A stretch of DNA of 64,000 bases from Pseudomonadota bacterium (GCA_013112535.1 JABFGI010000001.1:581243-645242), one strand, 5' to 3'. Positions 27,273 to 31,868 are shown, counted from the stretch's first letter. The notes: generated by a model from the sequence alone, not told the origin. Program-made: numbers and translations.

Positions 27273-27304
27273 GGGGTCATATCTTGAATCTTGAATTTAC
27301 TCAC
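27273..27304. repeat. IR copy R1 (GGGGTCATATCTTGAATCTTGAATTTACTCAC), a solo copy with 2 mismatches to the core
   Basis: Member of the 6-copy family GGGTCAGGTCTTGAATCTTGAATT. Confidence 0.7.
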
Positions 27305-27999
27305 GCCGCATCCCTCCATTCATTATTTAAACTTCCTTCATTTAAGTTCACATCACTAAACGTATCCGCAGGCACCTGAAAGTTAAACGCACGATCTGCA
27401 CGTGAAACTTGATCGTCAATATCATTTGTTACGACAGGTGCAAGATTGACATTACCCACATTCAAATTGAAGTCGAGCGACACTGATTGATTAGCACTAT
27501 CAGTAGCGGTAACGACAATATCAAGAATATCACTGTCAGTAACAGCAGGCGTACCACTAAATGTCAATGTATTAGCATCAAACGTTAACCACGAAGGTAA
27601 TTCACTGCCATCAGACAACGTTGCGTTGATATCAAGCAAATCCAGATCTTCATCAATAAAACTATCAGCAGCTAATTGGTAGCTAAACGACTGATCACTC
27701 AGGATGACTTGATCAATTGCACTATCATTTAAGACGGGTTCAAAGTTAGGGTTATTTAAAATTCCAGAAGGAAATTGTATCGTTTCTATAAAACCCTCTT
27801 TCGTATAATAATTAGTGATACGTACTTGTCCGCTTGCATCAGGAATACCAGGAATATCCGAATCAACGGACACATTAAGAATTAAATCATTAGCATCACG
27901 ATGGTAGCCGTCCAACTGTGGTGTTGCTTCGTCACCACCTTCAACTGTTGTTTCAAATAAAAGTTGATCGGGTTCAGGGTCAGGCCTTACATTTGACAT
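27301..27999 (-). pseudogene. Silent partial cassette 2. It is a paralogue (about 75% nucleotide identity) of the adhesin internal segment ~21960-22690, carrying one He_PIG domain and flanks. Its N-terminus is fused to unrelated sequence.
   Basis: The protein aligns with giant-protein residues ...LLFERVIDGVDEASPQLDSYNRDGNDLVLNVS...AFNFQILSDTFADVNLNE. It has no adhesin N-terminus, RTX C-terminus or secretion signal. Confidence 0.6.
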
Positions 28000-28001
28000 T
28001 T

Positions 28002-28256
28002 TTATAAGCCTCCTTCATATGATTTTACTGCTCTACTTACCGTTGCATAGCTCACATCAAAATACTCTCCGACATTTGACAAGGTATAGTGTCCACTCAA
28101 GTAGGCTTTCGCCATGGCGACTTTACGGTTACTGTCTTTCTTTTCAAAATACGCTAGGGGTTTTATCGCTCTTTGCTTTTGCTTTCTCGGAATATCTTTT
28201 AATGACTGATCAGTCTTTGGGGTCAGGTCTTGAATCTTGAATTTACTCATAATCAT
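28002..28256 (-). pseudogene. Orphan HTH ORF whose first codons lie in IR copy R2. Its C-terminal HTH resembles the HTH tail of the Y1 transposase at 29015-29944.
   Basis: AKAYLSGHYTLSNVGEYFDVSYATVSRAVKSYE compared with YKAYKEGAHSQKEIADYFKLHYSTVSKIIKKYE. Confidence 0.4.
28219..28250. repeat. IR copy R2 (GGGGTCAGGTCTTGAATCTTGAATTTACTCAT), solo
   Basis: Exact 24-bp core. Confidence 0.7.
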
Positions 28257-28277
28257 ATTTTCCTTTTTTTATGATTG

Positions 28278-29018
28278 TTAGGCGGCTACTTGAAAATTAA
28301 ATGCACGACCAGAACGAGAGATTTGATCTGTAATCTCATTAGCGACAAAAGGTGCCAAGTTAACGTTACCGACATTCAAATTGAAATCTAACGAAACAGA
28401 TTGATTGGCACTATCCGTTGCCGTAACAAGCACATCAATAATATCACTATCGATAGCAGCCGGTGTGCCGCTAAACGTTAAGGTATCGGCATCAAATGTT
28501 AACCATGTAGGTAACGCATTACCATCAGACAACGTCGCTTGTATATCTAAAAAGTCTAATGCTTCATCAGTAAAACTATCAGCGGCAAGTTGATAACTAA
28601 ATGGCGTATCAGAAAGAATAACCTGATCTTGTGAGGTATCATTTAAGATAGGTGAAAAATTTGGGTTATTTAAAATACCTGAAGGAAACTCTATCGTTTC
28701 GATGAAACCGGTCTTCGTATAATAATTAGATACTCGTACCTGCCCTGTTGCATTCGGTATTGTACTAATATCGGAATTTACAGAAACATATAGAACTAAA
28801 TCATTGCCATCACGATTATGGCTATCGAGTTGCGGCGTTGCCTGGTTACTGCCATCTACAATGGTTTGAAATAGTAATTGATCAAAACCACCGGCATCAT
28901 TAATCGTGATATCAAAACCATCAGTAATGTCCGCACTGGGCTGAAAACGATAGATTGAATCAAACGTATTACCCGTCGTTGGGGTCTGGGTCAGGTCTTG
29001 AATCTTGAATTTATTCAT
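28278..29018 (-). pseudogene. Silent partial cassette 1. It is a paralogue (about 85% nucleotide identity, with perfect stretches over 100 bp) of the adhesin segment ~22036-22735. Its ATG and first 10 codons come from IR copy R3.
   Basis: Constant offset of 6252 bp to the adhesin gene (for example CGAGAGATTTGATCTGTAATCTCATTAGCGACAAAAGGTG at 28315 and 22063). Antisense ORFs 22153-22341 and 28405-28593 are paralogous. Confidence 0.65.
28988..29018. repeat. IR copy R3 (GGGTCAGGTCTTGAATCTTGAATTTATTCAT), the right-end IR of the transposase element; contains the tnp stop and the cassette ATG (ATGA overlap)
   Basis: Exact 24-bp core; inverted relative to R4. Confidence 0.7.
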
Positions 29019-29979: not shown

Positions 29980-30512
29980 GTTTGCTTAAATTCATTAAGT
30001 CTATCATTGCTTTCCCAGGCTCCTTTCCCATCATTTGCAGTCGCATTCCAACTTTCGCCATTTTGTAAATGAGAATAATACTCTTCCATATCATGCAACT
30101 GGGCATAGGCAAACCCATGAAAACCTATCTCCAAATCAGCACCAAACGCATCACGTTCTTTATCACCTCCTTTACTACTTGGCTGTGACTCAGTGCTTCG
30201 AAATGAAAGGGTAAATTCACCCGTGTTTTTATTCTTTAGAACAGTCGCAGAAAAGCCACTATTGGTATTGGATAAATGATCAATCACTTCCCAGGTGGCA
30301 AAGAAGTCATCGATCATGACTTCTGTCATTTGGGTAGGGCCTTTAGTCAGTTCATCGAACTTTTGCAGATGGTCATAATGATTGCTGCCGTTAATTAATC
30401 TTTCAATAAAGTCATCATCACTTTCATTTGTAAAATCTACGCCATCCAGATAACTTTCTGCTGCATATTGTGCCAGAACAAATTCATATGTTGTGCGTAT
30501 ATCAATCGCCAT
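29958..30512 (-). pseudogene. N-terminal fragment of a class 3 lipase-like (Lipase_3 / DUF2974-type) protein, truncated by the IR/IS insertion before the GxSxG nucleophile
   Basis: Lipase_3-like blocks LAQYAAESY, SGFSATVL...FTLSFRSTES and LEIGFHGFAYA are present. There is no serine-elbow region. The ORF runs into R4. Confidence 0.4.
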
Positions 30513-31257
30513 TATCCTTCTCCTCCATTAGTGATCTCAGCTGGAATGAGCACTTTGCTTATAAAATCAACAACCATCGTGTCGTTTTTACCTTTCGGAC
30601 AGATTGTCATATCGCCTGTCTGTTCGTTTTTATAAAAAAAACCTTTTTTGATACCTAATATCTCATCAGTCTTTAATTCTTTAACAATGAGTTCGCCTTC
30701 CCACACACCATAACGTTTATCCTTTTCACTTCTGATTTCGCGCCAAGTAAATGCATATTTACTCTGCAAATCTGATATCTGCTTAGTAACATAAAGACTA
30801 CCCCAATCACTAGCAGGGCCAAAATAAGAATAACGCCAGTATTTTTCTCCTGTATCTTTAGGTTCTTCTGCAAGTTTCGTTGTAGGGAATCGCCTATCGT
30901 AAAATTTCCCCGCATTTGGTGCACGTGCTGTTTCAAGATATTGATAATAATTTCTATTTTTAGATGGATACACGAATAAACTTTCTACTTTACGTGCTTC
31001 ATAGTTCGTATGCCCATAAGGATCTTCCGGCAAATCTCCTTCTCTTAATCGTGTAAAATAATCTCGTGGATCACGCGGCCGCATCTGAAACAGCCCTTCC
31101 ACATTCTCCACCGTACGATAAATAAACTCCCCCGCATCCTGCTCACAACGAGACTGAAAATAATCCATTGAGGTTTTATTCCAATACCATCGATAAGTTG
31201 GATAGATAGCAATCAATATTCCTATAACAATAATGAATTTATTTTTGGTTAACATAA
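30512..31257 (-). CDS. Hypothetical membrane-anchored (signal-anchor) protein. The longer ORF to 31420 is an artefact of overlap with the duplicated fragment.
   Basis: Start at MLTKNKFIIVIGILIAIYPTY (signal anchor) followed by about 220 aa of hydrophilic domain; no family recognised. Confidence 0.4.
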
Positions 31258-31316
31258 ACTGGTTCCTTTTTGTGTTCCATGTATTAAATTTTTGGTCTAA
31301 GACACCACCTTGAACA

Positions 31317-31631
31317 TCAAGCCCCTTTCCCATCATTTGCAGTCGCATTCCAACTTTCGCCATTTTGTAAATGGGAATAATATTCTTCCATATCATGCAA
31401 CTGGGCATAAGCAAAACCATGAAAACCTATCTCCAAATCAGCACCAAACGCATCACGTTCTTTATCACCTCCTTTACTACTTGGCTGTGACTCAGTGCTT
31501 CGAAATGAAAGGGTGAATTCACCCGTGTTTTTATTCTTTAGAACAGTCGCAGAAAAGCCACTATTGGTATTGGATAAATGATCAATCACTTCCCAGGTGG
31601 CAAAGAAGTCATCGATCATGACTTCTGTCAT
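31317..31631 (-). pseudogene. Duplicate (about 98% identity) of the 3' two-thirds of the lipase-like fragment gene at 29958-30512; its 5' end is cut by IR copy R5
   Basis: 104 aa identical to residues 62-165 of the 184-aa ORF; about 325-bp direct DNA repeat. Confidence 0.55.
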
Positions 31632-31651
31632 TTGTCTCTAGGGTCTCTCTA

Positions 31652-31868
31652 GGGTCAGGTCTTGAATCTTGAATTTATTCATACCATCTCTTCCTCATAT
31701 TTTTTTATAATTTTACTCACGGTGCTGTAATGCAGTCCAAAATAGTTAGCTATTTCTTTTTGGGAGTATGTGTCATCTTTATAAGCAGCAAAAATATCTT
31801 TTTTATAAATTTTTATCATTCTTAAATACCTTCTTAATAGTTCAATTCAAGATTCAAGACCTGACCCC
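31652..31868 (-). mobile_element. Deleted (MITE/REPIN-like) derivative of the IS/REPtron. Inverted IR copies R5 (31652-31682) and R6 (31846-31868) flank a 46-codon remnant of the transposase C-terminal HTH (31686-31826).
   Basis: Remnant encodes MIKIYKKDIFAAYKDDTYSQKEIANYFGLHYSTVSKIIKKYEEEMV. The same ATACCATCTCTTCCTCATATTTTT tail follows R3 and R5. Confidence 0.55.

Follow-up and report, generated by a model that had tools for sequence, protein, structure and literature searches.

A putative TIRtron nest between a type I secretion system and a giant adhesin gene in a Pseudomonadota genome

The repeat cluster and its gene junctions

The stretch of DNA analysed here (64,000 nucleotides of a Pseudomonadota bacterium, GCA_013112535.1, JABFGI010000001.1:581243–645242; hereafter the window) carries genes of a type I secretion system (T1SS), hlyB and hlyD, and a giant adhesin gene, and the region between them holds six copies of a 24-nt repeat, GGGTCAGGTCTTGAATCTTGAATT, within 27.27–31.87 kb. 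The open reading frames (ORFs) at 26.7–36.3 kb comprise a membrane-protein ORF, He_PIG fragments, a transposase gene (TIRYT), a lipase-like gene, a hypothetical gene, ORF6N, HlyD, BrnT/A and HlyB. As argued below, the repeats are very probably the terminal inverted repeats (TIRs) of mobile elements whose transposase joins a HUH/Y1 domain, like that of the REP-associated tyrosine transposases (RAYTs), to a helix-turn-helix (HTH) domain, and the cluster is with the same high probability a nest of complete, mini and remnant elements.

Five of the copies are exact, those at 28220 (R2), 28988 (R3) and 31652 (R5) on the plus strand and those at 29955 (R4) and 31844 (R6) on the minus strand; the sixth (R1, 27274, plus strand) has two mismatches. 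An earlier reading of the same DNA (the original prediction) had described six clustered copies in these orientations, which was borne out by our mismatch scan of the window; no further match with three or fewer mismatches was found in the rest of it, or in 100 dinucleotide shuffles. When eight mismatches were allowed, a seventh, divergent copy appeared at 27976–28000 (17 of 25 positions identical). The repeat has two kinds of ends. Right-end copies (R1, R2, R3 and R5) bear the extension TTTAYTCAT, which left-end copies (R4 and R6) lack. The inner part of the TIR includes two tandem TCTTGAA heptamers. TTTAYTCAT is the reverse complement of ATGARTAAA, and the transposase stop codon TGA overlaps an outward ATG there. 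Since only the right end has this ATG, the repeat provides start codons in one direction and stop or C-terminal codons in the other; as the right TIR brings some 10 codons (MNKFKIQDLT) along with the ATG, any in-frame downstream sequence appears to 'start' in the repeat.

The original prediction also placed every copy exactly on a gene or cassette junction, and reading of the sequence and its ORFs confirms this; the seventh copy, too, separates the end of an HTH fragment from the start of a stretch of adhesin-like sequence, cassette 2. As proposed, R2 gives the ATG and 10 codons of an 82-aa HTH ORF, R3 the ATG of a second adhesin-like stretch, cassette 1, R4 the last codons and stop of the lipase-like ORF and R6 the last 16 codons of ORF6N, and R5, named as a truncation point, does abut a 97.8%-identical duplicate of the lipase-like gene. 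The proposal that R1 supplies the 5' end of the membrane-protein ORF (26705–27319) stands in part: R1 lies within the 5' part of that ORF, but its own ATG is GTG and a start is not clearly provided. The membrane protein may instead start at an internal Met (MKILSAW).

At four of the five right ends scored (27304, 28001, 28250, 29018 and 31682), the outward ATG (GTG in R1) continues in frame into a downstream ORF of 82 aa or longer. This excess is marginal (chance ∼ 0.04, small n), and the pattern was not seen in L057, L100 or L108 TIR2 (L numbers denote sequence blocks from other genomes). A promoter or terminator role for the repeat was considered and set aside: in a consensus scan, promoter-like sites were no more frequent than in shuffled sequence and none was tied to the repeat.

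The full-length element and its transposase

R3 (28988–29011) and R4 (29955–29978) are perfect inverted repeats of 24–25 nt on either side of a Y1_Tnp gene, and together they delimit a full-length element of 993 bp, 'TIRtron A' (28987–29979, minus strand), made up of a left TIR (R4), the TIRYT gene and a right TIR (R3). On the minus strand the left TIR (29955–29979) reads GGGGTCAGGTCTTGAATCTTGAATT and lies 89 nt upstream of the start of the transposase at MSRPL; the right TIR with its extension (28987–29018, minus strand) reads ATGAATAAA, and there the TIRYT stop TGA overlaps the outward ATG (as ATGA) that opens cassette 1. The gene itself (29015–29866, minus strand) encodes a RAYT-like transposase of the HUH/Y1 type with an HTH at its C-terminus. 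The protein is 283 aa long when counted from MSRPL; a conserved upstream ATG at 29932 would lengthen it to 305 aa.

The TIRYT protein matches Pfam Y1_Tnp (8.6e-15), and its C-terminus (residues 248–281) resembles HTH_23 (E = 2.7e-5) and HTH_28 (E = 4e-5), just under the Pfam cut-offs. Its score against the NCBIfam model of REP-associated tyrosine transposases (NF047646, REP_Tyr_transpos) is 79.4 bits with a cut-off of 80. Across 16 aligned homologs, H61 and H63 of the HUH motif and the catalytic Y120 (in RYxxLNPVRA) are invariant. The solved protein closest to the profile of this alignment is Escherichia coli TnpA_REP (PDB 4ER8, E = 2e-4), with both the HUH and the Tyr motifs aligned; a search of the PDB with the single TIRYT protein gave no direct match, and only the profile reached 4ER8. 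In comparisons with the L057 and L126 proteins, the ratio of non-synonymous to synonymous divergence (pN/pS) is well below 1 (pN 0.12–0.18), with pS saturated at 0.67–0.77, much like that of hlyD (0.60–0.73). Judged by these values, TIRYT is under purifying selection.

Mini-element, remnants and broken genes

Besides the complete element, the cluster contains one 218-bp mini-element, the 3' remnant of a divergent element and two solo right ends (R2 and R1). The mini-element (31651–31868, minus strand) consists of a left TIR (R6, 31844–31868, minus strand), an internal deletion, an ORF encoding only an HTH (31679–31819, 46 aa) and a right TIR (R5, 31651–31682, minus strand). Its TIR is identical to that of the full element at 25 of 25 positions and its right 136 nt are 87% identical to the 3' end of that element. 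Folded as single-stranded DNA it forms a long hairpin (z = –7.7). The arms of the mini-element, including duplicated 11-nt units outside each end, measure 41 nt (31635–31675 and 31844–31884).

R2 is a solo right end (28219–28286, minus strand) in which the TIR (28219–28250) is preceded by a remnant TIRYT tail of ∼ 36 nt (28251–28286) that ends in ...IIKKGKYDYE and a stop. Its outer end abuts the interior of a second, divergent TIRYT gene, the remnant of element 'B' (27976–28218, minus strand), which retains the C-terminal HTH part and its own right TIR (GGGTCAGGCCTT..., 27976–28000). The element B fragment is 38% identical to A at the amino acid level (in a tblastn search, 28211–28014 aligned to TIRYT residues 214–279) and matches HTH_23 and HTH_28; its TIR variant resembles that of an element on a Legionella adelaidensis plasmid. 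R1 (27273–27304, minus strand), with its two mismatches and ATG changed to GTG, stands between cassette 2 and the membrane-protein ORF. A transposase tail of ∼ 30–40 nt ahead of the solo ends is recognisable at R2 and doubtful at R1.

Two minus-strand ORFs derived from TIRYT C-termini thus encode only an HTH, at 31679–31819 (46 aa) and 28002–28250 (82 aa). By analogy with truncated transposases of other families, their products could act as TIR-binding regulators or inhibitors.

The genes next to the TIRs are broken. What is left of the lipase-like gene (29958–30512, minus strand) is its N-terminal 178 codons, cut by R4 just before the catalytic GxSxG motif (by ∼ 10 aa); the motif is present in L100 and L108, and the L100 ortholog runs on into GYSLGG. 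Codons ∼ 62–167 of this gene are duplicated at 31318–31634 (minus strand; 97.8% identical to 30016–30332), and the duplicate ends exactly at the outer end of the mini-element on the R5 side. The truncated ORF6N gene (31834–32181, minus strand) is cut by R6 at about residue 99 and is intact (183–186 aa) in L077, L123 and L126. Comparison with these orthologous sequences shows that ORF6N at R6 and the lipase-like gene at R4 are truly truncated and that the repeats lie at real rearrangement break points; the genes cut at TIRs here are intact in relatives. A TIR remains at the junction after every insertion or later deletion, which accounts for both truncations and for the TIR-bounded adhesin fragments; if the repeats are transposon ends, their position at junctions is what one would expect.

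In L108 (815–8000), a lipase-like domain with GHSLGG forms the N-terminus of a giant ORF of more than 2395 aa, which is orthologous to the central part of the adhesin in the window. On the strength of this orthology, the truncated 'lipase' of the window may be what remains of a giant T1SS substrate gene, namely its 5' end. The regions concerned are 29958–30512 of the window, 815–8000 of L108 and 1–745 of L100.

Distribution of the repeat in other genomes

A scan with GGTCANNTCTTGAATCTTGAATT (21 specified bases) of one genome per species, divided into 8-kb blocks, returned at least 120 matching blocks, with ∼ 0.3 expected by chance from the size of the database. Among the listed blocks are representatives of Gamma-, Alpha- and Betaproteobacteria, Desulfobacterota, Acidobacteriota, Actinomycetota, Verrucomicrobiota, Nitrospirota, Patescibacteria, Bacillota and others, including one metagenome-assembled genome (MAG) of Micrarchaeota and the isolate Desulfobulbus alkaliphilus DSM 24258; their G+C content ranges from 32% to 75%. 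A TIRYT homolog lies beside the repeat in 27 of the 120 listed blocks. Sixteen full elements found elsewhere have the same architecture as TIRtron A, and their partner TIR, which played no part in choosing them, usually differs at 0–3 of 25 positions; the encoded proteins are 36–71% identical to TIRYT of the window.

In these genomes the repeat occurs in dispersed multi-copy families, as full elements, head-to-head doublets and solo copies. The doublets (units of 57–100 nt) have spacers of 7–50 nt and form 27-bp hairpins; one MAG has an identical 57-nt doublet at at least five loci with differing flanks, as expected of dispersed mobile mini-elements. Identical doublets are numerous in the MAG MF1_201704_bin_1079, in Vicinamibacteria MFD09212 and in D. 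alkaliphilus DSM 24258. The excision footprint GGGGTCA...TGACCCC gave no matches.

Spread by phages or plasmids was considered and set aside. The repeat is nearly absent from viral contigs (one match in IMG/VR), and plasmids yielded a single full-length homolog with a variant TIR, on the L. adelaidensis plasmid. The TIRYT of that element is 49% identical to that of the window, and its TIR (GGGTCAGGCCTTGCCTTTTG) shares just the outer GGGTCAGG(Y)CTTG, so that subfamilies of these elements differ in the inner TIR.

The same locus in related genomes

Blocks syntenic with the window (75–82% nucleotide identity in hlyB/hlyD) carry a TIRtron or TIR remnants downstream of hlyD in five cases. In L057 a TIRtron directly follows hlyD; in L077 there is an intact ORF6N, a left TIR 12 nt past its stop and TIRYT (84% amino acid identity); in L126 an intact ORF6N is followed by 5 kb of other genes and then a TIRtron with a decayed right TIR. 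L100 has HicAB, another Y1 gene and a TIRYT tail with a right TIR; a solo left TIR also lies there, 37 nt upstream of hypothetical and lipase-like genes. In L108, two right ends and a degenerate TIR accompany the last ∼ 13 codons of hlyD, and these are followed by a hypothetical gene and the ORF of more than 2395 aa with the lipase-like N-terminus. L122/L129, L123, L125 and L127 have no TIR within five mismatches. In the comparison of the T1SS–adhesin intergenic region suggested in the original prediction, the region between hlyD and the adhesin differs among relatives exactly where the repeats occur, and TIR elements are a variable feature of it. No more than two mismatches in 25 are found in either TIR of L057 or in the left TIR of L126; with TIRs nearly unchanged while pS of TIRYT is saturated, the TIR sequence itself must be strongly constrained.

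Several other features of these loci may be noted. The second Y1/RAYT-like gene of L100 (2331–3101; 256 aa, no HTH, 36% identity to the N-terminal part of TIRYT) lies immediately upstream of the TIRYT tail and right TIR, so that two kinds of Y1 genes meet there. In L108 (150–236) the last ∼ 13 codons of hlyD are bracketed by TIR copies, and the contig begins just upstream. A BrnT/BrnA-like toxin–antitoxin pair between hlyB and hlyD (33584–34094) is found at the same place in L077, L100, L122–L124 and L128 and is absent in L057; HicAB pairs are located downstream of hlyD in L100 and L123. Short-read contigs of L121, L057 and L126 stop at or just past the TIR or TIRtron, that of L121 at ...CAATCTATGGG (∼ 31877 in the window), the first nucleotides of the duplicated unit outside R6, which suggests that those samples contain the repeat in multiple copies and that it breaks assemblies. 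Exact-match look-ups with HlyD, two start variants of TIRYT and the hypothetical protein of the window returned a single Logan contig of 2.6 kb, whose end is likewise at the repeat.

Tandem duplications at the outer ends

Short tandem duplications abut the outer end of the TIR in 23 of 148 copies, compared with a mean of 3.05 and a maximum of 9 for random positions. The duplicated unit consists of 7–19 nt of flank plus the first 1–7 (sometimes ∼ 20) nt of the TIR. R5 and R6 both have such a duplication (TCTCTAGGGTC twice and TCTATGGGGTC twice, at 31635–31656 and 31863–31884, respectively), and so do copies in L023, L029, L045, L057, L064, L067, L076, L103 and L131 (1366–1395). Within 60 nt outside the TIRs, isolated stubs of GGGGTCA show a 35-fold enrichment. 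The same signature is present in the complete L. adelaidensis plasmid, so it is not a MAG artefact. These duplications probably mark a place in or beside GGGGTCA where nicking or fork stalling recurs.

Capture of flank fragments as a general property of the TIR was also considered and rejected: long second copies of the outer flank were found in 8 of 126 cases versus 6 of 126 controls. Only the short tandem duplications are therefore general, and the larger ones are not.

The adhesin cassettes

Both cassettes are intact ORFs (27301–27999 and 28278–29018) that correspond to the same internal He_PIG segment of the adhesin (compared over 21999–22721). Cassette 1 (28287–28973, minus strand), between R3 and the tail of R2, matches 22035–22721 with 78.6% nucleotide identity (pN 0.145, pS 0.527), and cassette 2 (27337–27969, minus strand), between the element B TIR and R1, matches 21999–22631 with 75.9% identity; the two are 73.5% identical to each other. 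Overall, pS of the cassettes is 0.53–0.71 and pN/pS ∼ 0.23–0.28. The comparison with the adhesin reported no long identical tracts, and the readable related loci (L100, L108 and L107) showed no cassettes. At this level of divergence the cassettes look like old, long-diverged fragments of adhesin genes, either paralogs or foreign alleles, and not like recent copies of the resident gene.

The idea that the cluster is a dedicated site of cassette shuffling was not upheld: the repeats are better read as TIRs of a Y1/HUH transposase element and its deletion derivatives, and the cassettes are not freshly shuffled. As for the suggestion that R1, R2 and R3 could mediate cassette rearrangement, direct repeats do permit deletion, but not inversion. 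No invertase or integrase was found in or beside the cluster among the scanned ORFs of the window. The sole site-specific recombinase among them is an XerC/D-like protein (5779–6726; Phage_integrase plus an N-terminal SAM-like domain), encoded amid housekeeping genes 21 kb from the cluster. A shufflon or invertible segment was rejected for two reasons: no recombinase gene adjoins the repeats, and the cassettes lie between direct, not inverted, copies.

Assignment to a known class

RAYT-like genes flanked by long TIRs instead of repetitive extragenic palindromic (REP) sequences have been described, the proteins being called TIRYT and the elements TIRtrons; according to the text of that study, which rests on 26 examples, many TIRtron TIRs share the motif GGGGWSAS and TIRs also occur solo, as dimers and clustered (Di Nocera et al., 2013; PMC3733652). 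Twenty of the 26 TIRYT proteins were subsequently placed in TnpA_REP-like subclass 2.1, which is marked by HTH_23, HTH_28 or Bac_DnaA_C tails (Quentin et al., 2018; PMC6006769). TIRYT is mentioned in no other paper of the literature searched. The element in the window shares with these a Y1/HUH RAYT-like gene with a C-terminal HTH_23/HTH_28-type tail, long TIRs rather than REP hairpins flanking the gene, a right TIR that overlaps the 3' end of the gene, and TIRs that also occur solo, as dimers and in clusters (seven copies in the window, and in other genomes). The outer motif GGGGWSAS is represented by GGGGTCAG in R2, R4 and R6; R3 and R5 have GGGTCAG and R1 has GGGGTCAT. In sequence features, then, the element is a member of an already described, little-studied class, TIRtron/TIRYT, subclass 2.1, the match to the subclass being one of domain architecture (the C-terminal HTH_23/HTH_28-like extension). 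Two differences stand out from the published text: here one 25-nt TIR variant is near-invariant across phyla, as against the shared 8-nt motif described there, and an outward ATG, outer-end tandem duplications and deletion derivatives retaining an HTH mini-ORF occur here. In the literature text searched, figures aside, we found no description of HTH mini-ORF derivatives or the outward ATG, nor of outer-end tandem duplications, and queries for the repeat sequence itself returned irrelevant matches only.

Other classes fit less well. REPtrons reportedly combine a RAYT (TnpA_REP) gene with REP/REPIN sequences, in work said to be that of Nunvar in 2010, Bertels and Rainey in 2011 and Ton-Hoang in 2012. 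The catalytic domain here is homologous to theirs (the 4ER8 profile match), the gene likewise lies between inverted short repeats, repeat doublets fold into long hairpins like REPINs and there are signs of long residence in lineages. However, the single 25-mer is no palindrome (its folding energies, –0.3 and 0 kcal/mol, do not surpass those of shuffles), GGGGTCAGGTCTTGAATCTTGAATT lacks GTAG and CGTC, and the protein has an extra HTH domain; reading the repeat as a REP was rejected because one arm is not palindromic and has no GTAG.

Members of IS200/IS605 have subterminal hairpins and no terminal inverted repeats. The element resembles that family (IS608, ISDra2) in its Y1 HUH fold (Pfam Y1_Tnp) and in showing no target-site duplication, and the two probably share single-strand 'peel and paste' chemistry. 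Nevertheless, this assignment was rejected, as the element has TIRs and its protein scores 20 bits against the IS200-type model NF033573 with a cut-off of 55. The 218-bp R6–R5 unit and the 57–100-nt doublets are also like miniature inverted-repeat transposable elements (MITEs) and other deletion derivatives of insertion sequences in being bounded by the TIRs of the parent and non-autonomous, but the presumed mobilising enzyme is HUH/Y1 rather than DDE and no target-site duplications were seen.

Discussion

Taken as a whole, the cluster is a messy transposon nest between a type I secretion system and a giant adhesin, with no sign of a dedicated switch. Its formation could be pictured as follows. 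The HTH domain of TIRYT would bind the inner TIR with its two TCTTGAA heptamers, and the HUH/Y1 domain would nick single-stranded DNA within or beside the outer GGGGTCA. With their TIRs paired in a long hairpin, elements and mini-elements would move in the manner of RAYT/REPIN and IS200/IS605 systems; short tandem duplications would arise from nicking or fork stalling where the TIR ends on its outer side, and recombination between copies, by RecA or by the transposase, would yield chimeric flanks.

Several points weigh against the transposon reading. Binding, the cleavage site and transposition by TIRYT are modelled on TnpA_REP and IS608, and the literature searched contained no TIRYT biochemistry. 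In no case are the flanks of an element in the window contiguous, so that simple insertion is insufficient and additional deletions or recombination must be assumed. The 16 full elements show no evident target-site duplications, no empty sites were found that would demonstrate recent mobility of the window copies, and copies in the source genome were counted within the 64-kb window. Finally, several species have a TIRtron in this neighbourhood, diverged to much the same degree as hlyD, which fits long residence, and possibly domestication, better than recent hopping.

The last point leads to an alternative in which TIRYT is domesticated: a non-mobile transposase, inherited vertically like single-copy RAYTs and kept for TIR-bound regulation or local DNA processing, with the extra TIRs as its substrates. 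The gene is indeed intact in the window, L057 and L126 and is under purifying selection there, its divergence at synonymous sites resembles that of neighbouring hlyD, the neighbourhood is shared by four to five species, the TIRs are conserved while the interior diverges, and the HTH-only ORFs could serve as regulators. We nevertheless regard domestication as improbable, given that the element is absent from the close relatives L122/L129 (90% HlyD identity), L123 and L125, that it lies at different distances from hlyD (immediately next to it in L057, behind ORF6N in L077, 5 kb away in L126) and that its right TIR has decayed in L126; truncation of genes by the elements looks selfish, and other genomes have dispersed multi-copy doublets.

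Still less probable is programmed variation, in which dedicated recombination would swap, invert or delete silent cassettes and so vary the adhesin secreted by the T1SS. What speaks for it is the existence of two intact, repeat-bounded ORF fragments of one adhesin segment upstream of the adhesin, with pN/pS of 0.23–0.28 as a sign of purifying selection, together with the in-frame outward ATG at four of five right ends and the recurrence of TIR elements at this locus in several relatives. Yet the cluster contains no invertase or integrase, the direct repeats around the cassettes permit deletion only, and the cassettes, whose nucleotide sequences differ by 21–26% from the adhesin and for which no long identical tracts were reported, would be a poor substrate for gene conversion. 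Nor do the readable related loci (L100, L108, L107) have cassettes, and the same repeat occurs in hundreds of unrelated contexts without adhesins. That the repeat is kept for encoding an 11-aa protein N-terminus, such as a leader peptide common to several genes, is hardly credible: four ORFs begin with or contain the peptide in frame, but R4 and R6 are in the opposite orientation and give C-terminal or stop codons in other frames, elsewhere the repeat is mostly intergenic, in head-to-head doublets or without the ATG, and its conservation is at the nucleotide level, even in genomes of 75% GC.

A more ambitious version of the transposon reading sees the element as a long-resident HUH machine whose nicked ends seed duplications and whose right end is a portable, translationally coupled start codon that expresses captured fragments of T1SS substrates in frame. 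The duplications so seeded could range from the 7–19-nt tandem copies up to the 317-bp lipase copy and the ∼ 700-bp adhesin fragments. We consider this version unlikely; if true, it would amount to a transposase-driven way to build and vary adhesin or lipase modules. In a weaker form, the 25-nt TIR and the HTH could be an unusually deeply conserved protein–DNA recognition pair, found in many bacterial phyla and one archaeal-labelled MAG.

Returning to the nest of TIRtron-like elements, this account replaces a 'recombination switch' with something concrete and checkable, namely the fragmentation of a T1SS–adhesin region by a named class of Y1/HUH elements. There are practical consequences for annotation and assembly: ORFs that start with MNKFKIQDLT or end in ...GSGLES or ...GQVLNLEL are likely transposon-end artefacts, and short-read assemblies break at these repeats. 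What retains interest is the cross-phylum invariant 25-nt end, the micro-duplications adjacent to it, the HTH-only derivatives and the marginal excess of in-frame fusions. For the TIRYT family, the near-invariant 25-nt end, maintained in genomes of 32%–75% GC and with proteins down to 36% identity, offers a handle for biochemistry, and the natural mini-elements and the reproducible micro-duplication mark the probable nick site.

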